Sequence record: PP920550.1
Origin: Escherichia phage Dru_SM5
DNA length: 44,061 nt
Direction: 5' to 3' (one strand)
The position numbers and the translations under genes are program-made. The notes under the pieces were generated by a model that ran no database searches, was not told where the DNA came from, and saw nothing but the letters and a program-made list of their open reading frames with translations. Positions 5,046 through 42,659 of the stretch are shown one piece after another (position 1 is the stretch's first letter; each line of letters opens with the position of its first letter).

Positions 5046-5810
5046 TTATCGCGGAATACCGCAAATCTCGTTGAGAGTTTTCACATCCAGCGCCACCGCC
5101 GTGGACTTCGGCTTATCCGGGTATGGAATAAACTGTTCAACTTCAGGCCACGCCTTGACCAGCTTCTTATCGGTATTGTGCATATCCAGCACGCCGGTAA
5201 CAGTTAGTTTGAACGCGTCATACTTAGCCCGCAACTCACGGCGGGCCTTGTCGTTACGGTCCAGGCGCTTGCAGAAATCATGGTCCGCAGGGTAGTCTAT
5301 ACGACCGCGTGGCTTATATATCGGCAGCGCTTTCCCTTCATCGTCAACTTCGCACACTGACGCTAACATAATTTCCTCATACCCAGGAACAATATCGCTA
5401 AGATCCGGTGCGAGCTTATTCATATATTTGTCTTCCCAGTATCCGCGGTGTTGGCGGAATCTTAGCCCGTCACCACTCAATGATAGGGTACGAACATTAC
5501 CGCCTGCGTTGATTTCGAAAGTGGCGTCGTAAACGCAGCCGATACCATACGGGCGATCGGAGTCGAAACGATACGTCGCTTTGTCGGTGTAAACGCTAAC
5601 GCCGTACATCTGCGACTGGTTGTCGCGGATTAACCGGATGTGCTCGAGTAGCTCGGCGAATGTGCGAATGCCTTCCGGCATACAGTCAAGCGTGATTGCG
5701 TACGCCAGATCGCGTGAGTCCACCATGATTTGTTTGGCTTCGGTTGCGATTTCGTGGTCGCGCAGGATGTTAGCCAGAATCTGATTTTTAATGTCTTTTG
5801 TCAGTCTCAT
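5046..5810 (-). CDS. hypothetical protein (reverse-strand insert in head module)
   Basis: Track ORF 5046..5897; internal ATG at 5810 chosen because it follows an AAGAGGA RBS (255 aa). No recognisable motif. Confidence 0.6.
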   Translation of the reverse strand: MRLTKDIKNQILANILRDHEIATEAKQIMVDSRDLAYAITLDCMPEGIRTFAELLEHIRLIRDNQSQMYGVSVYTDKATYRFDSDRPYGIGCVYDATFEINAGGNVRTLSLSGDGLRFRQHRGYWEDKYMNKLAPDLSDIVPGYEEIMLASVCEVDDEGKALPIYKPRGRIDYPADHDFCKRLDRNDKARRELRAKYDAFKLTVTGVLDMHNTDKKLVKAWPEVEQFIPYPDKPKSTAVALDVKTLNEICGIPR

Positions 5811-5824
5811 TTTTGTGTCCTCTT

Positions 5825-5986
5825 TTAGTGGTTGTATAATTCGCCGCGTGCGTCGGCATCTTCCATTTGGTGTAGTGCGTGTTTCTGGTCCTGGCAAGGA
5901 ATCCAGCGTTCCTCTAATTTATGCCAGAAGTAAAACACCCCGTTATCCAGCTTAATCTCGGCAATACCGTTATTGAAAGTTAGCAT
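5825..5986 (-). CDS. hypothetical small protein
   Basis: Track ORF 5825..6040; ATG at 5986 follows a GAGGG RBS (53 aa). First gene of the reverse-strand pair. Confidence 0.4.
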   Translation of the reverse strand: MLTFNNGIAEIKLDNGVFYFWHKLEERWIPCQDQKHALHQMEDADARGELYNH

Positions 5987-6052
5987 TTTGTTACCCTCAT
6001 TGGTTGGTATGCAACCAATATATTGCAACCAATCCACCAATGCAAGCGAATT

Positions 6053-21831: not shown

Positions 21832-21852
21832 AAAGCCCCGAAAGGGGCTTAT
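21832..21852. terminator. bidirectional terminator hairpin
   Basis: AGCCCC-gaaa-GGGGCT with flanking A/T runs, between convergent genes. Confidence 0.45.
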
Positions 21853-22067
21853 TTGCAGGTTGTGCTTTTGAAGTGGTCGACCGACACATACTGGAAGTTG
21901 AATGGGTATCCCGCCCGTAACATTTTATGACCGCTAACGTCTGCAACCCCAAACACAGGGACGGAATACTCCACGCCACTATTCATGTATGTCGCGTCGC
22001 AGACTTTAGTCGGCATGTTGGCACAACCCGACAAAAGAACCCCACAAATCATAATTAAAGTTTTCAT
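21849..22067 (-). CDS. small lipoprotein, candidate Llp/Cor-like superinfection exclusion protein
   Basis: ATG at 22067 follows an AGGAGA RBS. Signal peptide MKTLIMICGVLL with lipobox LSGC; about 55 aa mature, Cys-containing. Reverse-oriented next to the tail fiber gene. Confidence 0.5.
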   Translation of the reverse strand: MKTLIMICGVLLSGCANMPTKVCDATYMNSGVEYSVPVFGVADVSGHKMLRAGYPFNFQYVSVDHFKSTTCK

Positions 22068-22147
22068 GGTATCATCTCCTATATTTGGTCGAGTTTTAGT
22101 ATCGCACCGCTCGACCAGGATTGCAACCAATTTATGAGGATTCAGCT

Positions 22148-23482
22148 ATGGCAGCGGGTACACTATCCGTAACGAACAATAGCAAGGCGGTAGTAGGGGT
22201 CGGCACAACGTTTACCGCGTTTAAAGCTGGCGACTTCTTAACGCTGGTGGTAGGACAAGTCCCATACACCGTGGCAATCGCGTCCGTTGAAAGCGCAACC
22301 GCGCTCACGCTGGTGTTGCCGTTCGACGGCCCAACGGCAACCGGCCTTGCGTGGGATGGTGTTAAGCGCGATACCATGTCACTGGCAACGATGGGCGTTA
22401 CCGTACAGGCTCAAAAAGCATTGCGCTTGATGATTGCAGATGAAAACAACTGGCGTGCAATCTTCGGCGACGCTGAAGAAATCACGGTCACGCTGCCGAA
22501 CGGGCAGGTGATGCAGGGTATGTCGTGGGGCTATCTGTCGCAGTTGATGAAACAGATCGACCCGTCTCAATACGCTAAGGTAAGTAACAACCTCACCGAC
22601 CTCACCGACAAAACCGCGGCACGGCAGACTCTCAACGCAATCGGCGTCGGGGATTATGGCATCGGAGGCGGCGCACCTGGCGGAAGTTGGGACACAGCAG
22701 ATGATAGCACCCTGATCGCTACAAACACAGGGTCCCCACTAGGTGACTTCTCCGTAGCGGGTGTGCATGTTAAGTTTGCGCAAAACTATGCTGTACAGTT
22801 CGCGGCGCGTAAAAGCCGATTTTTCTGGCGAACTAAAGAGAATGGGGCGCTACAGAATTGGTGCGAAGCGGTGAAGCCCGGCGACTACGGACTGGGTATT
22901 GAAAGATCAACCCCACCGCCGAATACGCAGGCTTGCTTTTTCTCGCAGGCGATCGGAGGTCCGACTTGGGCACCTGCAAACGGCGCAGGATTTCAATCTT
23001 CCTACCTCCCCACGCGTGTCGCGCAGGTTATGGTCGGGGTGGGGCCAGTGCTCTACTATCGTTTTAACACCTCCGGCGACGCGCAAGTCTCCTCCACAAC
23101 GCAACCATGGTCGCGGGTGCAAGATGCTGGTACGTCTGATGCCCGTGTGAAGGATATTAAGGGCAATTTAAATGTGGAAGCGGCGCTGGATAACATCAAC
23201 CGCCTTGAGTTTAAGTTGTTCCGGTACACGTTTGACGAACCGGAGCGATCTACGCGACGCGGAATCATTGCACAACAAGCGGCAACGGTTGACCGGGAAT
23301 ATGTGCACGACCACGAAGTGCCGGGGATGATGACGTTGGACTTAAACCCGCTTGTTGCGGATTGCCTGGCGGCTATTAAAGCGTTAAGAGCGCGTGACGA
23401 GGCGAACAAGGCCGAGATTGCAGAACTGAAAGCTGCCGTAGCGGAGTTGAAAGCCGCGGTCGCGGCACTGACTAAAGCATAA
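22148..23482 (+). CDS. tail fiber protein with C-terminal intramolecular chaperone (peptidase S74-like) domain
   Basis: ATG at 22148 follows a TGAGGA RBS. C-terminal roughly 120 aa (DARVKDIKGNLNVEAALD...coiled-coil AEIAELKAAVAELKAAVAAL) resemble auto-cleaving fiber chaperone domains. N-terminus shared with the 14665 ORF. Confidence 0.65.
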   Translation: MAAGTLSVTNNSKAVVGVGTTFTAFKAGDFLTLVVGQVPYTVAIASVESATALTLVLPFDGPTATGLAWDGVKRDTMSLATMGVTVQAQKALRLMIADENNWRAIFGDAEEITVTLPNGQVMQGMSWGYLSQLMKQIDPSQYAKVSNNLTDLTDKTAARQTLNAIGVGDYGIGGGAPGGSWDTADDSTLIATNTGSPLGDFSVAGVHVKFAQNYAVQFAARKSRFFWRTKENGALQNWCEAVKPGDYGLGIERSTPPPNTQACFFSQAIGGPTWAPANGAGFQSSYLPTRVAQVMVGVGPVLYYRFNTSGDAQVSSTTQPWSRVQDAGTSDARVKDIKGNLNVEAALDNINRLEFKLFRYTFDEPERSTRRGIIAQQAATVDREYVHDHEVPGMMTLDLNPLVADCLAAIKALRARDEANKAEIAELKAAVAELKAAVAALTKA

Positions 23483-23488
23483 CGAGAA

Positions 23489-23511
23489 GGGGCCACACGG
23501 CCCCTTTTTTT
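23489..23511. terminator. bidirectional terminator
   Basis: GGGGCC-acac-GGCCCC hairpin followed by TTTTTTT, between convergent genes. Confidence 0.55.
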
Positions 23512-24085
23512 AGTTTGAGTTTTCCCAGTCCATTTTGCGCCGCACCAGCGGGCTTTCGTAATATTCCTTGCCTTCCACTTCCACTAAGGGCCAATCATTA
23601 ACAATCACGTATGGCTCTGCGATATCTTCAATAACGCCGTGCGCGCTTTGTGGTCCCAACGACACGCCCACCAGGATAACACCGGCAACTCGACGGGTAA
23701 GATACTCGCGAGCGCAACGTGCCTCAACCAGTCCGCGACGGATGCCGCTGGTGGCTTTAACCTCGTAGGTCCAGACGGCATCGATCACATGCTCGCGGAA
23801 GTCGGGACCGGACTTAACCTTGCGCTTGCCGACCATGATAATATCGCCGCGGTCGATAGTGTTAGCGCTAAACAGGCCGGTACGCATTAGCAAACCTTGT
23901 GGAATACAGCTACGCCCGCCCGACTGCCCTTCGAGGTACATGCCTGCAAACATCTCGCCCAGCACACCGACAAGACGGCTTTGCTTGCACGCGTCAGACT
24001 TGTATCTCCACTGGTCAAACTCGATGCTTGCTATCATTGCCGCAAGGTGGAATTGTTTACCGGATATTTCATATTCGCCGTACAT
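23510..24085 (-). CDS. hypothetical protein, possible PD-(D/E)xK-type nuclease
   Basis: 191 aa with RBS GAGGACC. Contains GPDF...13 aa...EVK, fitting a PD-x(n)-ExK spacing. Assignment is motif-only and weak. Confidence 0.35.
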   Translation of the reverse strand: MYGEYEISGKQFHLAAMIASIEFDQWRYKSDACKQSRLVGVLGEMFAGMYLEGQSGGRSCIPQGLLMRTGLFSANTIDRGDIIMVGKRKVKSGPDFREHVIDAVWTYEVKATSGIRRGLVEARCAREYLTRRVAGVILVGVSLGPQSAHGVIEDIAEPYVIVNDWPLVEVEGKEYYESPLVRRKMDWENSN

Positions 24086-24127
24086 CGTGTGGTCCTCATT
24101 GATGCGGGCTTCGGCCCGCGATTAGAA

Positions 24128-24682
24128 TTATTTCAGTGCGCTACGTACCAGTGTTTTTTCCATGTTGCGGAAGTCTTCCGGCGTCATGAGGATTTTGGAC
24201 CCATCCTCTCCAGTGAGCACGACCATAGGCTGGACGTCCTGGGCCGCTACGCCGAAATTGGCGGCTTTGACAGTCTTCCCGAACGAGGCCACCACACCTT
24301 CGGAAACGCGCATTGCACTGTTATACGCATTAATCTCGCCATCTAGTCGTACGGACAGGTCTTTGAGGCTGTCGAATTGTGCTGCCGTTGTGTCGATCTG
24401 GATCTCGTCATGCACGGTCATGTACGACTCGCCCAGCAGGGCGGAATAGGCTACCAGGTCAACGATGTTATCGTCCTGGTGCTTACGGTGCTGGCGTACC
24501 AGCTTCAGGCAGACCAGGAAGGTCCAGGCTTCTTGCTCGGTCAGGTCGCGCCCGGTAAGCGCGTTAAACACGTCAGCGATTTGTTTAGCGCTGCGTTCTT
24601 CTTTCGCGTTGTCATAGCCGTTTTCTTTTCCGCGCTGTTCCATAGTGGTGGCGGCGTTTTTGCAGTATTCGTATGCTTTCAT
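24128..24682 (-). CDS. hypothetical protein
   Basis: 184 aa with RBS AAGGACC. No recognisable motif. Confidence 0.6.
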   Translation of the reverse strand: MKAYEYCKNAATTMEQRGKENGYDNAKEERSAKQIADVFNALTGRDLTEQEAWTFLVCLKLVRQHRKHQDDNIVDLVAYSALLGESYMTVHDEIQIDTTAAQFDSLKDLSVRLDGEINAYNSAMRVSEGVVASFGKTVKAANFGVAAQDVQPMVVLTGEDGSKILMTPEDFRNMEKTLVRSALK

Positions 24683-24727
24683 TATGTGGTCCTTATTAGC
24701 GCGGGGCCATATTGCCCCGACGCGTTA

Positions 24728-24757
24728 ACTATAGTGCAACCAACCTATTGGTTGCAA
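24728..24757 (-). promoter_or_regulatory. candidate promoter embedded in a 9-bp-arm inverted repeat
   Basis: On the minus strand: TTGCAA, 18 nt spacer, TATAGT. Spacer overlaps the inverted repeat TGCAACCAA-ccta-TTGGTTGCA (24735-24756). About 45 nt upstream of the 24682 start. Confidence 0.35.
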
Positions 24758-25215
24758 GTAAATTTTGCAACGTTTATTGCGTAAATTTTCGGGACTAAAT
24801 CGCCGCACGCCCGACGAATGGCCGCGATGTTCTTCGGACCGTCTTCAATGATGACCAGTTCCGATACGTCCGCATAGCAGACCATTTTGAATACAGCGCA
24901 CGCCTTAAACTCTGGCGGCGGGGTGTCGTCCAGCATGTGGCGCATAAACAACCGGCCGTTCGGGAATACTTTCAGTTGCTCGGCGGTGGTGTCCCAGCAT
25001 TCTCGCTGCCGGTTTGTCAGATACGCGATCTCGAAGCCTTGCTCTTTATACATGCGCAGTAGCGGCAGCATATCCATGTTCAGGTCTTCGCGAACGTGCG
25101 CTTTGTGCCACTTCGCCCAAAAGGTGGATTTCGTTTTTATGCCGGGCACCAGGTCAGCACGCGCATCGCTTGATCCATTAATAACGCCATCCAAATCGCA
25201 AATCAGTAGTTTCAT
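24745..25215 (-). CDS. HAD-superfamily phosphatase-like protein
   Basis: N-terminal MKLLICDLDGV (HAD motif I DxDG), a downstream Thr/Ser motif, and EDGP near the C-terminus. 156 aa. Confidence 0.55.
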   Translation of the reverse strand: MKLLICDLDGVINGSSDARADLVPGIKTKSTFWAKWHKAHVREDLNMDMLPLLRMYKEQGFEIAYLTNRQRECWDTTAEQLKVFPNGRLFMRHMLDDTPPPEFKACAVFKMVCYADVSELVIIEDGPKNIAAIRRACGDLVPKIYAINVAKFTCNQ

Positions 25216-25445
25216 TTTAAGCTCTCAATAAGTGTCTGTCGGGCGCTTCGCGCAGTAAAGGAGTTGCATACGAAATGGCAACGCCGAGTTATGACAAGCC
25301 AACCGGTGAGGTCAAGGCCCATGATGCGTCCGGGATGGGACGCGCGCACCACATGATTGCGGCGTGGGTCGATGCAGAAGTCTTTTTGCATTTGGTCTAC
25401 TACCGCGGGGTCGCGGTCAACGATTAAGATATTCATGTAGCTCAC
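25212..25445 (-). CDS. hypothetical protein
   Basis: 77 aa ORF, overlaps neighbours by a few nt on both sides. Confidence 0.4.
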   Translation of the reverse strand: MSYMNILIVDRDPAVVDQMQKDFCIDPRRNHVVRASHPGRIMGLDLTGWLVITRRCHFVCNSFTARSARQTLIESLK

Positions 25446-25902
25446 TCTCGCTCATTATTTCAATTTGTGCGCTGCCGCATGGCGGCGCTTCGTCAAATAT
25501 TATCAATTGCTGGCACTTGTTATTGCTCGGCCCGACTTCACCGGTTACAGCATGTATGAATCGGATCCGCCAGTCCAGAAGAATTATCAGGTTTGCAGTC
25601 TTCCTGGCCAGCTTCGCCCACTTCGTCGACGTGTCCTGATTCAGCAGCATGACAGTCCGTCGACCGTGCGCTGCGCATTCCACCCACGGCAGCGGATCGG
25701 AATACGGCGGATTGCACCACTTCCACCCTTTCAACTCTGACCAGTCCACATCAAGCGCGCTGTGCTCTGCCGTGAAGTAACGCGGTAGCAGATGGTTGGC
25801 GTCGCTTGCCGCCATATCGTAACGGAATCGGAACTTACGGCGCAGCGGTTTAAATAAAGCTGGCGGCGTGCGCCAGCTATCTTTCTGCTCACTCTTCTGC
25901 AT
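25417..25902 (-). CDS. DNA N6-adenine methyltransferase (phage Dam-like)
   Basis: Catalytic NPPY motif (WKWCNPPYSD). Size about 160 aa, typical of phage orphan N6-adenine methyltransferases. Confidence 0.75.
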   Translation of the reverse strand: MQKSEQKDSWRTPPALFKPLRRKFRFRYDMAASDANHLLPRYFTAEHSALDVDWSELKGWKWCNPPYSDPLPWVECAAHGRRTVMLLNQDTSTKWAKLARKTANLIILLDWRIRFIHAVTGEVGPSNNKCQQLIIFDEAPPCGSAQIEIMSESELHEYLNR

Positions 25903-26347
25903 AGTCTGGATCTATCGCATACAGGGCGGTTTTCTTTCCGCCGGATAGCACGCGTTGGACTCTGGACATCTCCTCCTTACTGAGCGGTCGGCTATCGGAA
26001 TAGTAGCTGCCGTTTGCACGCCACGCTATATGCACCAGTCCTTTCCACGGGATCGAAGACTGGCGACCTTTGGGGCGCACGTACGCCTCGGCCCGTTTGC
26101 AATGCTCGCGCAAACCTTCGGCTGTGAGTCGATTTAGTGCGACGGTGGTTGTGTATCCGGTGCGCTGCATAATACACATCAACTCATACAGCAGATCGAA
26201 GCGCTCCTCTAATTCCTTTCGCGCCTTCTCCTCGCCTTCATAGCTCGCCAGATAGGTGTCTGCCAGCGCGCTAACACGTTTGACCTGTTCGCGGGCTTCG
26301 AGGCATTGCGCGGCCCAGTAATTTTTCTCTTCTTGTAAAATCTTCAT
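25889..26347 (-). CDS. hypothetical protein
   Basis: 152 aa ORF overlapping the Dam start by 14 nt. Confidence 0.5.
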   Translation of the reverse strand: MKILQEEKNYWAAQCLEAREQVKRVSALADTYLASYEGEEKARKELEERFDLLYELMCIMQRTGYTTTVALNRLTAEGLREHCKRAEAYVRPKGRQSSIPWKGLVHIAWRANGSYYSDSRPLSKEEMSRVQRVLSGGKKTALYAIDPDYAEE

Positions 26348-26590
26348 TTATTTAATCTCCGTAGTGCGGATTTCCTTGCGCGGAATAAATTTGCCGTCTT
26401 TCTCGACCCAGCAAGTTCCGAAACGCCATTGGGTATTACGGCCTGTTTGCTCGGCATATACGGTCTTGCATTCGTAGCGTTCCGTATAGTAAGTAGCCGC
26501 GGTAGGTACGAAAATACAAACGGCAAACATGAGGGTGAGTATCACCCAAAATCGAAGGTCGCCGTCGTAGTCGAAAAATAATGATCTCAT
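26348..26590 (-). CDS. small membrane protein
   Basis: 80 aa with one predicted TM helix (FWVILTLMFAVCIFVP). RBS GGAGA. Preceded on the minus strand by a terminator hairpin. Confidence 0.5.
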   Translation of the reverse strand: MRSLFFDYDGDLRFWVILTLMFAVCIFVPTAATYYTERYECKTVYAEQTGRNTQWRFGTCWVEKDGKFIPRKEIRTTEIK

Positions 26591-26608
26591 CGTGTTGTCT
26601 CCAGGTAT

Positions 26609-26636
26609 TAAAAAGGGCGTCCAAACCGGACACCCT
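26609..26636 (-). terminator. minus-strand intrinsic terminator / attenuator
   Basis: Minus strand: GGGTGTCC-ggtttg-GACGCCC followed by TTTTT, immediately upstream of the RBS of the 26590 gene. Confidence 0.45.
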
Positions 26637-26671
26637 TAATGTAATGCAACCAATCTAATTATGCAACCAAT

Positions 26672-26989
26672 TTACGCATAAAAGTTTGGGTCGCGTGCAA
26701 CGTCTACCAGGTAAAGGTTGCTTATGCGGTTGCCGTAGTGCCCTGGAGTGCGCTGGCGGCACACAACGGCGAAGCCTGGGGGGATTGTATTGCCCGTCTC
26801 AATAATCCACGCCACGCGTGCACCAGACAGCGTCTTGCCGTTGCATTCGATACGTGTTCCGCCGTCGGCAGTATTGATGTTGCCGATCTTGCAGCCGGTG
26901 GACTTCAGACGGATGACTCCGGTTTTGCTGTCGTAGGTGAATAGCTGGTTAGTCATTGCAACCGAAAAGTCGATGGCTTCGAATGTCAT
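26672..26989 (-). CDS. hypothetical protein (possibly degenerate HNH/NUMOD-like)
   Basis: 105 aa. The G-x-x-IECNGK...ARVAWIIETG pattern loosely recalls phage HNH_3-type proteins but lacks the catalytic His. Function uncertain. Confidence 0.4.
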   Translation of the reverse strand: MTFEAIDFSVAMTNQLFTYDSKTGVIRLKSTGCKIGNINTADGGTRIECNGKTLSGARVAWIIETGNTIPPGFAVVCRQRTPGHYGNRISNLYLVDVARDPNFYA

Positions 26990-26990
26990 T

Positions 26991-28619
26991 TTAAATTTTC
27001 CTCGTTTTCTTAGCTTTCATGTATTCCATCAAGTCGTCCTGAATATCTCGCTTACTGTCTCGACGCTCGGCGACCAGTTCGTCCAGTGTACCGCGCGCCT
27101 GGATAATGTAGACGAATACCGGACGGGGGTGTCCTGCTTGCATCTGGCGAACCGGCCCGATACGTTCAACGATCTGCGAAAAGTGCTCAAAGTTCCAGGT
27201 ATCGGAGAAGATTGCCAGGTGGTGACCGCCGTCCTGCAAGTTAAGGCCGTGGCCGGCCGATGCCGGGTGTGCAAACATGATGGGTATCTCGCCCCTGTTC
27301 CACGCTTCCATATCCTTATTCCCCTGCTTACCTTTGCCCAACGCAACGCCGTGCGGAAATTTCTTCTTGAGACGCGCCAGGTCATGCTTGTACTGGTACG
27401 CAACGAGCAACGGGGCGCCGTTCAACTCCTCTACGATACTTTCCAGCGCGTCCAGCTTGGCGTCGTGGATCTTCACCCACTCGTCGGTCCGTTCGCCGTC
27501 TTCGTCGACTTTATACACGGCCCCGGAAGCAAGCTGAAGGCACTTAATAGTCTTCGAAGCAGCGTTCGCCGCCTCCACAGTTCCGCTTTCCAGTTCGGCA
27601 AATAGCTCCGCTTCGAACTGGTCATAAATCTTGCGGGCTTTCTTCGGCAGGTCCACAACAACAGGCGTATAGATTGGCTTGTCGCATCCGAAGTATTCAG
27701 CCGCGTCAACGGTGAGGGATACATCAGACAGGCGTTGTTGTATTTCTTTCTCGGAGTTCTTTAGCGGAGCGTGCTGCATCGTGAAGCTGCCGGGGTTAAC
27801 CGGCTTGCTAATGAACCAGCGATCGGTGAATGCCTTATAGCTACTGCCGAGACGCTCGCCACCGTCGACAAACCACGTCTGACCCCATAAGTCTTTTAAG
27901 CCATTAGGCGCGGGTGTGCCGGTCAGGTTAATCCAGCGCTTGACGTGCTTATGTGCAACCGCTGCCAGTGCGCGGGCGCGCTTACTCCCCTGCTTACTTC
28001 GATAGCCTTTCAGCTTAGGCGCGGGTGTGCCGGTCAGGTTAATCCAGCGCTTGACGTGCTTATGTGCAACCGCTGCCAGTGCGCGGGCGCGCTTACTCCC
28101 CTGCTTACTTCGATAGCCTTTCAGCTTAGTGGATTCATCGGCAACAACGACCGTAAAGGGCCACGCATCGCCGTAATAGTCAACCAGCCACTCAACCACA
28201 TCATAGTTAACACAAACCACGTTAGCGTCGCTCTCCAACGCGGCTATGCGGTCTTTCTCCGGCCCAGTGCCGTCTACGACCAGGAGGGATGAGAACCGCC
28301 ATTTCTCCTGCTCCGGGGGCCATGTACCTGACGCAACACGCAGCGGGGCCAGCACCAGTACGCGGTCGTCATGATGGGATAGGACGCCAGTCTGGAACAT
28401 TTTATTCAGCGCCCACATTGTCGCGCCGGTTTTACCGGATCCCATTGTCGCCCAGATATTACATCGCTTATGCTTGAGGATGAACGCGGTTATCAACTTC
28501 TGATATTCGCGGCGTCGGAATCGTGCCATATCTTTATTCCGCCTTTTTCCAGACTTCGGTTTCACTGTTCCAGTTCCTTTTTGTGGCGTCGTAGTTGGTG
28601 GCGTGTCCGATGTGGACAC
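26991..28619 (-). CDS. SNF2/DEAD-like superfamily 2 helicase
   Basis: Motif I WATMGSGKT, motif II VADEST, motif III LTGTPAP (duplicated by a 111 bp tandem repeat), plus C-terminal helicase motifs. Alternative start at 28529. Confidence 0.75.
   Translation of the reverse strand: MSTSDTPPTTTPQKGTGTVKPKSGKRRNKDMARFRRREYQKLITAFILKHKRCNIWATMGSGKTGATMWALNKMFQTGVLSHHDDRVLVLAPLRVASGTWPPEQEKWRFSSLLVVDGTGPEKDRIAALESDANVVCVNYDVVEWLVDYYGDAWPFTVVVADESTKLKGYRSKQGSKRARALAAVAHKHVKRWINLTGTPAPKLKGYRSKQGSKRARALAAVAHKHVKRWINLTGTPAPNGLKDLWGQTWFVDGGERLGSSYKAFTDRWFISKPVNPGSFTMQHAPLKNSEKEIQQRLSDVSLTVDAAEYFGCDKPIYTPVVVDLPKKARKIYDQFEAELFAELESGTVEAANAASKTIKCLQLASGAVYKVDEDGERTDEWVKIHDAKLDALESIVEELNGAPLLVAYQYKHDLARLKKKFPHGVALGKGKQGNKDMEAWNRGEIPIMFAHPASAGHGLNLQDGGHHLAIFSDTWNFEHFSQIVERIGPVRQMQAGHPRPVFVYIIQARGTLDELVAERRDSKRDIQDDLMEYMKAKKTRKI
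27904..28129. repeat. perfect 111-bp tandem duplication inside helicase gene
   Basis: Two identical 111 bp units (period verified 27904 to 28015). Encodes KLKGYRSKQGSKRARALAAVAHKHVKRWINLTGTPAP twice, in frame. Confidence 0.85.
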
Positions 28620-29785: not shown

Positions 29786-30064
29786 CTATGCGACCAATTC
29801 AGCAACCAATAAATCGCAGTCGGCTATGTTGTCAATAACGCGAACGTCAGCACCGCGGCGGACCATTCGATCGTGTTCTCGTACCTGGTGCGGCTTCGGT
29901 TTTCCACCGGGGCGCTTCACTTCGACGAATACAACTCTGCCGTTTATGATAATAATCAGGTCGGGCGCACCTGAGCGCCCCTCCCATGCCAGTTTTCGGC
30001 AGAATCCACCAACCTCTTTCACCCGTTTCATCAGGTGATTCTGCACCTTGCCTTCGGGAGTCAT
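29786..30064 (-). CDS. VRR-NUC domain nuclease
   Basis: 92 aa with PDLIIIINGRVVFVEVKRPGGKPKPHQ, a PD-(D/E)xK core typical of VRR-NUC. Confidence 0.65.
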   Translation of the reverse strand: MTPEGKVQNHLMKRVKEVGGFCRKLAWEGRSGAPDLIIIINGRVVFVEVKRPGGKPKPHQVREHDRMVRRGADVRVIDNIADCDLLVAELVA

Positions 30065-33308: not shown

Positions 33309-33405
33309 TTTCCAATTCCTCATTTTCACATGTATCGGGGTTATTGGAAGCCACCCCGTTCGGCTTGGTTGCTAATTTACTTGGTTGCGCCTAAGCGGTC
33401 AAGCT

Positions 33406-36066: not shown

Positions 36067-36406
36067 GGTATATCTCCGATTGGTTAAGTTTAGGTGTCGG
36101 CAGTTAACTTCGTCGGTGGCCTTAACATATTGCCAGGTTACGCGTTCTCCCGTTCGGGTAGTGGACCTGGTTATATAATCACGGTTGGGAATCCTGACAC
36201 TTCGATCCGTCCCCTGCGTTGCCCCTCTCCAGTTTGCGTCCTGCATCCTGTCGACGGAGTGAATGATAGATTGGTTGCAGGATGGGTGTCAACAACTAAT
36301 TTCAAAAAAAAGCGCCGAGGCAAAATGCACCGGCGCTAACCAATAAGAGACAATGAGACGGGAGTATTATTACACGCGTGCGCGCCCGTTTCAATATCCA
36401 AAGGAT

Positions 36407-39071: not shown

Positions 39072-39182
39072 ATTCTGCGCGCATTGGTTGCCGATATGGG
39101 AATTCCCATATCGCTAAACGATTAATTTGTGCGCGTATTGGTTGCCATTTTGCGTGTTTTTATCTGGTCGTATTGGTTGCCG
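39066..39182 (+). repeat. direct repeats flanking a perfect 22-bp palindrome (origin- or operator-like)
   Basis: 27 bp direct repeats at 39066-39092 and 39120-39146 (GATTAAATTCTGCGCGCATTGGTTGCC and a near copy), a partial third at 39170-39182, and the perfect palindrome CGATATGGGAATTCCCATATCG at 39092-39113. Confidence 0.7.
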
Positions 39183-39393: not shown

Positions 39394-39548
39394 AATCCGG
39401 GGATTGCAAAATACACGGCAGCATGATGCGAAGGGCGGTCGTCGATGAACCAGGCAACCAATGCGGGTTGCATTATGCTGAGTGAAAAATGCAGTTTGCA
39501 GTTGCAGCAGATAGCGATCAACTTTTTCATGCGCGTGATTAATATTGG

Positions 39549-39577
39549 TTGCATTCAGCCTGGAGCCTTGATATATT
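39549..39577 (+). promoter_or_regulatory. candidate promoter for the 39606 operon
   Basis: TTGCAT, 17 nt spacer, TATATT, then RBS ATGAGGA and the ATG at 39606. The -35 hexamer lies inside an ATTGGTTGCAT motif. Confidence 0.4.
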
Positions 39578-39605
39578 GGTTGCACACCAACATGAGGACT
39601 GAACA

Positions 39606-39941: not shown

Positions 39942-40211
39942 ATGACCCGTAGACGCGCAAAACAGCTTTCGTGGCATATTCCCCTGCATTGCATACGAAT
40001 ATGGGCTAAGAATGCGAATGCGGGGGATTCTGTATTCTGGTGTTATCGCGACGACGTTAAGCCGTTGACGCAGACTCGCTACTTGCACCAGTTCGCAGCA
40101 CAACACGATTTCAGGGTGCGGACTTCCTTGCAACCAATGGGGATTCGTATTACATTACGCCGAAAGCCCGCCATTGAGCGGGTAGGCAAACACTGGAGAC
40201 TGAGCAAATGA
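39942..40211 (+). CDS. hypothetical protein
   Basis: 89 aa basic protein; its stop overlaps the next ATG. Confidence 0.45.
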   Translation: MTRRRAKQLSWHIPLHCIRIWAKNANAGDSVFWCYRDDVKPLTQTRYLHQFAAQHDFRVRTSLQPMGIRITLRRKPAIERVGKHWRLSK

Positions 40212-42629: not shown

Positions 42630-42659
42630 TTGACTTGCAACCAACATAGACGCCATACT
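42630..42659 (+). promoter_or_regulatory. candidate sigma70-type promoter
   Basis: TTGACT, 18 nt spacer, CATACT. Spacer contains GCAACCAA; GCGACCAA follows. Confidence 0.4.

Follow-up and report, generated by a model that had tools for sequence, protein, structure and literature searches.

Results

Genomic context and conservation of the locus

We analysed a stretch of 44,061 nucleotides from Escherichia phage Dru_SM5 (sequence record PP920550.1), hereafter the window, and focused on a block of seven minus-strand genes (g1 to g7 in the order of their coordinates) at positions 23510-26590 between the tail-fibre gene and a helicase gene. The window derives from a Dhillonvirus, an HK578-like coliphage, and shares approximately 90% nucleotide identity with the phages welsh, Teewinot and Oekolampad. 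The seven open reading frames (ORFs) that a preliminary description of this DNA had listed were all present at their coordinates. However, the total from the tail fibre to the helicase is eight rather than seven genes, as an HNH endonuclease gene at 26672-26989 had been missed. A megablast search with positions 23400-26700 against 50,697 phage records returned 158 matching records with 80-95% nucleotide identity. All of them are Dhillonvirus-type coliphages and they include welsh, Teewinot, Oekolampad (Bas18), HK578 and SECphi18. In 147 of the 158 records the block was co-linear, with at least 80% of the query in one match, and the locus as a whole is therefore not the variable cargo site that a comparison of related phages might have revealed. 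Even L018, a distant locus with a g1 of only 55% identity, keeps the gene order. Some natural losses were seen: HK578 (L007) lacks g6, SM_A8 carries a g6 remnant, and locus L013 lacks g3 and g4.

In the annotated map of Oekolampad the plus strand carries the structural genes, the last of which encodes the lateral tail fibre. The minus-strand operon starts near 36.6 kb and encodes a RecB-like nuclease, SSB, DNA polymerase I and a SNF2-type helicase, followed by a Dcm gene in some phages, the HNH gene, the seven genes of the block and a bidirectional terminator that faces the convergent tail-fibre gene. A scan combined with RNA folding placed this intrinsic, bidirectional terminator at 23484-23509 in the window, between the tail-fibre gene on the plus strand and g1 on the minus strand. 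It consists of 11 pairs followed by a T-run, with a folding energy of -18.8 kcal/mol and a z-score of -5.45. In an otherwise ordinary Dhillonvirus, the seven genes occupy the promoter-distal end of the early (DNA-metabolism) operon, which runs leftward. Its GC content resembles that of the remainder of the genome. The ORFs g7 through g3 abut or overlap each other and are bounded on both sides by spacers of similar layout. A comparison of positions 23300-27100 with Rfam gave no match, and no tRNA genes were found in the window.

The genes of the block evolve at two different rates. The ratio of nonsynonymous to synonymous substitution rates (dN/dS) was 0.058 for g1, 0.048 for g3 and 0.071 for g5. 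These three genes show a protein identity of about 96% across the genus and a constraint equal to that of the helicase. In contrast, we obtained values of 0.154 for g2, 0.228 for g4, 0.218 for g6 and 0.194 for g7, and these small genes change three to five times faster or come and go among phages.

The slowly evolving genes g1, g3 and g5

The gene g1 (23510-24085, minus strand) encodes a protein of 191 amino acids that belongs to the sequence-orphan family phrog_10558. The preliminary description regarded it as a possible PD-(D/E)xK nuclease owing to a PD-x13-EVK spacing. Both the predicted fold and a conserved motif back a nuclease, but the Pro-Asp pair had been misassigned: it corresponds to P94-D95 with a spacing of x12 and lies in a loop of variable length that is not conserved. 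Searches of Pfam, NCBIfam, PADLOC and the PDB, by phmmer and with a profile of 16 sequences, revealed no sequence link to a named family. The family is very small: seven clusters of homologues emerged from a word-indexed search of 5.8 billion proteins, and 15 homologues from a full HMMER profile search of 1.84 billion representative sequences. In the alignment, which extends to 23% identity, G40, E44, G64, R68, D81, E108, K110, Y128, I161 and W165 are invariant. Among these, E44, D81 within an 'RGD' sequence, and E108-V-K110 are unchanged across 16 relatives including the one with the lowest identity.

The AlphaFold2 model of g1 reached a mean predicted local distance difference test score (pLDDT) of 83.4 and a predicted template modelling score of 0.80. 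It contains the alpha-beta-beta-beta-alpha-beta core that defines the PD-(D/E)xK fold. In this model E44 is located on a long helix (residues 34-54), D81 opens the strand 82-87, and E108-x-K110 lies within the strand 101-112. A Foldseek search with the model against BFVD yielded almost only uncharacterised phage proteins of 150-200 amino acids. The best structural matches were the homing endonuclease I-Ssp6803I (2ost), fusellovirus D212 (2w8m) and archaeal Hjc (2wcw, 1gef). The sequence identity to these enzymes is 10-15% with no sequence-profile link, and g1 differs from them at both termini, with an extra helical hairpin at the N-terminus and an extension at the C-terminus, and in its beta2-beta3 loop, whose length varies. 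From the model and the alignment, g1 is a predicted PD-(D/E)xK-fold nuclease with E44/D81/E108/K110 as its putative catalytic set.

With 95-99% identity in 105 records, g1 is among the most conserved proteins of the region. About 39 Klebsiella T1-like phages and a further lineage (L029) carry more distant homologues with 31-36% identity. In both groups the gene is the last of the early operon, right before the lysis genes, and lies 0.7-1.4 kb downstream of a Dam-family methyltransferase gene. Locus L028 encodes a nuclease of the g1 type and gave no Dam hit. Hence, the link between nuclease and Dam is not strict, and common descent may be enough to explain it.

The gene g3 (24745-25215, minus strand) encodes a protein of 156 amino acids. 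The proposal of a HAD-type phosphatase held, since the protein matches phrog_415 at 1.6e-35 and contains all four HAD motifs: D7-L-D9-G-V (motif I), T/S67 (motif II), K104 (motif III) and E124-D125 (motif IV), which are kept down to a homologue with 45% identity. We assign it to the small-cap or capless type of the superfamily. Among the loci compared, g3 is missing from L013 only. In its small size and its DxDGV nucleophile motif it resembles the HAD domain of T4-type polynucleotide kinase/phosphatase and class B acid phosphatases; unlike the former it has no kinase domain. It scored below the Pfam and NCBIfam cut-offs of all named HAD subfamilies, including Acid_phosphat_B (2.1e-5, 24.6 bits versus 27) and TIGR01662 (15.2 versus 44.6).

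A Dam methyltransferase with an NPPY motif had also been recognised early, and g5 (25417-25902, minus strand; 161 amino acids) was confirmed as a Dam-family DNA N6-adenine methyltransferase. The motif is present, and PF05869 was matched at 8.6e-36 with 123.6 bits against a cut-off of 28.1. This full-length match above the gathering score and the catalytic NPPY motif are shared with phage orphan Dam enzymes, of which those of T1 and VT-2 are examples. The PADLOC models for orphan methyltransferases matched g5. It differs from Dam proteins at the equivalog level, as it reached 88.5 bits with TIGR01712 and remained under the cut-off of 97.05; its specificity for GATC is a prediction. No known restriction-enzyme family is encoded adjacent to g5, but 1.3 kb downstream the operon encodes the uncharacterised PD-(D/E)xK nuclease g1. 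In the BASEL phenotyping, Dhillonviruses were comparatively sensitive to type I and type II restriction, and no simple link between methyltransferase genes and resistance was seen, the latter being stated for Drexlerviridae. Therefore, a broad protection from restriction should not be ascribed to the Dam gene.

The fast-evolving genes g6, g4, g2 and g7

The gene g6 (25889-26347, minus strand) lies between the HNH and Dam genes and encodes 152 amino acids. ORF35 of phage SM_S22 has been shown to inhibit the Tmn defence; it is confined to Dhillonviruses and absent in SM_A8 (PMC11846954). In the GenBank record of SM_S22, coding sequence (CDS) 0035 is a gene of 154 amino acids between the HNH and Dam genes, and the CDS6 and CDS18 of the paper agree with the numbering of the record. 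In SM_A8 all other genes of the block are present and the counterpart of g6 is reduced to a remnant of 33 codons, which fits the absence described in the paper. The window protein is 82% identical to SM_S22 CDS0035 in alignment A6 (BLASTP: 124 of 154 positions, 81%, E 4e-90). Both belong to a family confined to Dhillonviruses and have the same locus and nearly the same length. They differ by about 30 substitutions and a gap of two residues, which are concentrated in the C-terminal domain. Thus, g6 is a homologue of an experimentally shown anti-Tmn protein, and its own activity is predicted.

An anti-Tmn protein is expected to form a dimer and to have two N-terminal helices and a C-terminal beta-sheet domain. 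Its potency shifts with small sequence changes, so that activity is specific to the allele and to the Tmn variant (PMC11846954). The SM_S24 and SECphi18 alleles are 88% identical to g6; the SM_S24 allele, which is the closest tested relative, did not inhibit the Tmn of PLG026 (PMC11846954). We found g6 at full length in 154 records. With only 60-80% identity in 118 of 155 it is the most divergent gene of the block.

In several annotations g6 carries the label of a DNA ligase (SSL-2009a, SECphi18, SM_S22 and PHROG 10530), and the record of SM_S24 reads 'putative DNA ligase but no evidence'. We rejected this candidate function, because no ligase family of Pfam or NCBIfam was matched and no KxDG is present in the sequence. 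The label is a propagated annotation error.

Further reports connect Dhillonviruses with defence systems. A single K-to-E change in nmad5 allows a Dhillonvirus to escape from Tmn (PMC11846954). The window encodes an 88% identical homologue of nmad5 at about 5049-5825 on the minus strand, among the head genes and far from g6, preceded by copies of the motif TTGGTTGCA, described below, at 6010 and 6024. For Retron-Eco7 a Dhillonvirus trigger 'of unknown function' was reported (PMC12640716). Escaper studies with SECphi4, SECphi6 and SECphi18 implicated the SSB, DNA polymerase and portal genes and not the genes of the block.

Between the methyltransferase and phosphatase genes lies g4 (25212-25436, minus strand). 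The ORF spans 25212-25445, and the ATG at 25436 is the more likely start, giving a protein of 74 amino acids. Ksap1 of SECphi18 has the same length and its gene also lies between the methyltransferase and phosphatase genes (PMC11564622). KpAvs2 binds Ksap1 directly through its C-terminal domain, and Ksap1 is necessary and sufficient for activation; escapers from KpAvs2 tolerate large deletions in Ksap1, and Bas18 is restricted by KpAvs2 (PMC11564622). The protein g4 is 82% identical to SECphi18 gp51 (Ksap1) and is flanked by the same Dam and phosphatase genes, while its identity to the Ksap1 allele of Bas18 is 93%. By these likenesses g4 is a Ksap1 homologue. A tblastn search found it in 157 phage records, in several allele classes. 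The window allele keeps the residues L47 and T50, at which escape mutations occur, as well as F60 as in sensed alleles. Compared with SECphi18, two of three predicted interface residues differ (K30V and L39M). Sensing of this allele by KpAvs2 is likely but not certain, because L47, T50 and F60 are kept but V30 and M39 are present.

The protein encoded by g2 (24128-24682, minus strand; 184 amino acids) comprises an N-terminal DUF6378 domain, a variable linker and a conserved C-terminal element of about 35 residues. PF19905 was matched at 5.2e-9 by residues 16-85, with 36.7 bits against a cut-off of 27.1. DUF6378 was matched in 17 of 18 homologues, and none of the 18 matched another Pfam family. 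The homologues range from 130 to 199 amino acids, as insertions and deletions are confined to the linker: the middle differs by 0-60 residues and both ends are kept. Such plasticity in length is unusual for a universally retained gene. The AlphaFold2 model of g2 was poor (pLDDT 63) and its fold search uninformative. DUF6378 may resemble the DUF1599/Nmad1 or MazG-like folds. The nmad5 of the Tmn study is the separate gene mentioned above and distinct from g2.

The last gene, g7 (26348-26590, minus strand), directly abuts g6 and encodes a single-pass membrane protein of 80 amino acids. In agreement with the early assignment as a small membrane protein, residues 14-32 form its single hydrophobic segment (mean Kyte-Doolittle value 2.29). 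Its PHROG matches are all of unknown function. The gene occurs in 81 phage records, and 78 of these are full-length Dhillonvirus copies (at least 80% query coverage, with two Enterobacter-phage records left out) out of about 158 Dhillonvirus records. It was present in 7 of 17 loci, and where it is missing the same 85-bp spacer meets g6 directly. Thus, g7 is a clean presence/absence polymorphism.

Intergenic elements

Two GC hairpins without T-runs had been noticed upstream of g1 and g2. Both proved to be real, at 24104-24119 and 24699-24723 on the minus strand, and are conserved in 15 related loci. The first (GCGGGC-loop-GCCCGC, 6 bp, -12.7 kcal/mol) is the only element in the 42-nucleotide spacer between g2 and g1. 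Its loop reads CGAA in the window and TTCG in all 15 relatives, with identical stems. The second lies just 5' of the ribosome-binding site of g2. Here, one compensated change was found in L005 and one uncompensated change each in L006 and L008, and in the distant L018 another GC hairpin occupies the equivalent site. We considered covariation as support for the hairpin, and one compensated against two uncompensated changes is too thin to call it. Neither hairpin resembles an intrinsic terminator, as both lack a U-run and are followed by a ribosome-binding site; U-runs are present at the hairpins at 23484-23509 and 26613-26637. Next to -10-like boxes and TTGGTTGCA motifs, they most likely represent stem-loops of the 5' untranslated region (5'-UTR) or of RNA processing rather than terminators.

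The preliminary description had left out a palindrome at 24735-24756 and the terminator-like U-run hairpin at 26613-26637. The former is a perfect palindrome, TGCAACCAA-N4-TTGGTTGCA, which overlaps the stop codon of g3 and is followed by a -10-like TATAGT (together 24728-24756, minus strand). A promoter scan of this spacer returned TTGCAA-18-TATAGT, and 15 loci agree fully at positions T5, A6, T7 and T10 of the -10-like box. The order of elements between g3 and g2 is palindrome, TATAGT, GC hairpin, Shine-Dalgarno sequence and start codon. We regard palindrome and TATAGT as a candidate internal promoter or operator for g2 and g1. As a side observation, in the corresponding spacer of L011 the TGCAACCAA palindrome carries an inverted 4-nucleotide spacer, CCTA instead of TAGG. 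The loop inversions in the window hairpin and in L011 are consistent with template-switch flipping of palindromes.

The spacer between the HNH gene and g7 (26591-26671, minus strand) contains two direct copies of TTGGTTGCA (26645-26653 and 26662-26670), followed by the 10-bp hairpin with a U-run at 26613-26637. Both copies are kept at the same place in Oekolampad. The 9-mer TTGGTTGCA occurs in 12 exact copies in the window where approximately 0.3-0.4 are expected. The copies often extend to ATTGGTTGCA, and almost all are intergenic and lie just upstream of gene starts. Most are paired at a distance of 12-31 nucleotides or palindromic, and the sites are conserved in Oekolampad. They are located at 6010-6032, 22122-22130, 24735-24756, 26645-26670, 29789-29809, 33365-33389, 36271-36279, 39084-39181, 39545-39584, 40129-40137 and 42636-42644. 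No description of the motif was found. It looks like an operator or promoter element and is a candidate for the control of a phage regulon.

Other features of the window

The HNH endonuclease gene (26672-26989, minus strand) between g7 and the helicase gene encodes 105 amino acids and matches phrog_99 at 4.6e-16; annotations of relatives label it as HNH or homing endonuclease. In most relatives, among them Oekolampad, SECphi18, SM_S22 and most IMG/VR loci, a gene of about 700 bp for a Dcm-like C5-cytosine methyltransferase lies between the HNH and helicase genes. It is absent at the HNH-helicase junction of the window (26989-26991), where tblastn detected no remnant, and L010 has the same arrangement without Dcm.

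The helicase gene (26991-28619, minus strand) contains a perfect tandem duplication of 111 bp at 27904-28129 (2.0 copies, 100% identical), which inserts 37 in-frame residues directly behind the DExx box of this SNF2-type protein. In relatives the segment is single and the protein has 474 amino acids. The duplication is either a very recent event or an assembly artefact. The helicase ORF of the window also begins 30 codons upstream of the start in relatives.

Regarding restriction and methylation sites, the window contains 153 CCWGG sites and 158 GATC sites, the latter being mildly depleted with an observed/expected ratio of 0.79. CTAG is strongly depleted (0.36). No EcoKI site (AACN6GTGC or its complement) occurs in the 44 kb, where about five are expected. 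Just upstream of the tail-fibre gene, a small minus-strand ORF at 21849-22130 encodes a lipoprotein-like signal (…LLSGC…), and its position matches that of the gene for 'superinfection exclusion protein Cor' in SM_A8 and SM_S24.

Discussion

The block at 23510-26590 is best described as two layers, inherited vertically with the genus: three constrained enzymes and a set of fast-evolving small proteins at the immunity interface, placed together at the end of the early operon. We assign this reading a probability of roughly 80%. In the first layer, the Dam-family methyltransferase g5 would methylate phage DNA, most likely at GATC. The small HAD phosphatase g3 may act on a nucleotide or a nucleic-acid end. 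The product of g1 would be a Mg-dependent PD-(D/E)xK-fold endonuclease, for which the processing of DNA late in replication is our best guess. In the second layer, g6 is predicted to inhibit the Tmn defence ATPase on the strength of the 82% identical SM_S22 protein, with an activity that depends on the allele. The dispensable Ksap1 homologue g4 would be bound by KpAvs2 to detect infection, as shown for the SECphi18, Bas17 and Bas18 alleles. The DUF6378 protein g2 and the membrane protein g7 probably belong to this layer as well. Conserved intergenic elements appear to divide the block into g7-g3, g2 and g1, and the GC hairpins without U-runs would serve as 5'-UTR or processing and stabilising stem-loops beside internal promoter or operator regions and not as terminators.

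Several points weigh against this reading. We found no experiment in the literature on g1, g2, g3 or g7 for any phage. Small sequence changes abolish both Tmn inhibition and KpAvs2 sensing, so the activity of g6 and g4 from the window is a prediction only. The residues V30 and M39 of g4 are those of the SECphi6 allele, which is not sensed; the Bas18 allele, which is sensed, has both too. For g6, ORF35 was equated with CDS0035 through locus-tag numbers and its absence in SM_A8, and the CDS25 ('tail protein') of the paper is off by one against the GenBank record. Finally, the view of the hairpins as promoter-associated or 5'-UTR elements is inferred from sequence features.

The block was initially considered a plausible site for anti-defence or nucleotide-metabolism cargo. 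In its stronger form this idea describes the whole block as a moron-like hot-spot of exchangeable accessory genes. Indeed, g7 occurs in about half of the genus, some relatives have the adjoining Dcm gene and others lack it, g6 counts as an anti-defence gene, both g4 and g6 can be dispensed with, and the linker of g2 is hypervariable. Moreover, the seven genes have no assigned replication role in related records. On the other hand, the co-linearity in 147 of 158 records and the order retained in L018 argue against an exchangeable site, as do the helicase-like constraint on g1, g3 and g5 and the genome-like GC content. We also found no integrase, transposase or flanking repeats. The homology of g6 to a published anti-Tmn protein is what stands of the cargo proposal; since the block carries two published immunity genes but is core throughout the genus, the idea is only partly right, and an exchangeable island is improbable.

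Somewhat less probable still is a functional module of g1, g2 and g3 for end processing or nucleotide salvage, composed of a nuclease, a nucleotide-binding DUF6378 protein and a 3'-phosphatase or nucleotidase similar to that of polynucleotide kinase. The three genes are adjacent in every Dhillonvirus, g3 matches a PHROG named 'polynucleotide kinase', that is, its phosphatase domain, and in L029 a DUF6378 gene is found near the nuclease too. However, L013 keeps g1 and g2 without g3, spacers with their own regulatory elements part the three genes, and g2 has no resolved fold. In addition, a kinase or ligase partner is missing, given that the ligase label of g6 is false.

A related and equally tentative proposal, to which we give little weight, is that g1 may represent an undescribed family of small PD-(D/E)xK phage nucleases and form, with g2 and g3, an uncharacterised system. 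In three T1-like lineages the g1 family closes the early operon; a Dam-family gene usually lies within about 1.5 kb, and a DUF6378 gene is sometimes nearby. Such a system could be a methylation-linked nuclease or a module for processing nucleic-acid ends. If true, it might degrade or reprogramme host nucleic acids or counter host defence.

The linkage of nuclease and methyltransferase also suggests a pair resembling restriction-modification, in which g1 attacks DNA lacking the phage mark and g5 protects the phage. This appears very unlikely. The E. coli host is itself Dam-positive and its GATC sites would already be protected, and L028 has the nuclease without a detectable Dam gene. The linkage is explained by shared ancestry, since all these lineages are T1-like phages related to one another. 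In structure, g1 is most similar to a homing endonuclease and Hjc-like enzymes and not to a specific restriction-enzyme family, and with the above ratio of 0.79 GATC is not avoided in the window. Least probable of all is a selfish nature of g1, as a homing endonuclease comparable to the product of the adjacent HNH gene. Genes for homing endonucleases tend to be sporadic and either free-standing or intron-borne. In contrast, g1 keeps a fixed position in essentially all Dhillonviruses (93-99% protein identity), and distant T1-like lineages have it at this end of the operon too. Its identity together with a dN/dS of 0.058 argues against a selfish enzyme.

The division into constrained enzymes and fast-evolving immunity-interface proteins combines earlier and new results. 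The locus, Ksap1 and anti-Tmn were known from the literature, and the Dam and HAD calls from existing annotations. New in this analysis are the fold and catalytic motif of g1, the corrected annotation of the supposed ligase, the contrast in rates, the polymorphisms of g7 and Dcm, and the TTGGTTGCA motif. As a consequence, Ksap1 and anti-Tmn can take the place of labels such as 'hypothetical' and 'DNA ligase' in over 150 Dhillonvirus records, and gp26-type proteins (g1) can be labelled as PD-(D/E)xK-fold nucleases. In other respects the block is an ordinary, well-sampled region of a common coliphage genus, but the rate contrast within 3 kb shows the place where the arms race acts. From the g4 and g6 alleles it can be predicted whether KpAvs2 senses a given Dhillonvirus or whether the phage escapes from Tmn, which matters for phage therapy and for defence biology.

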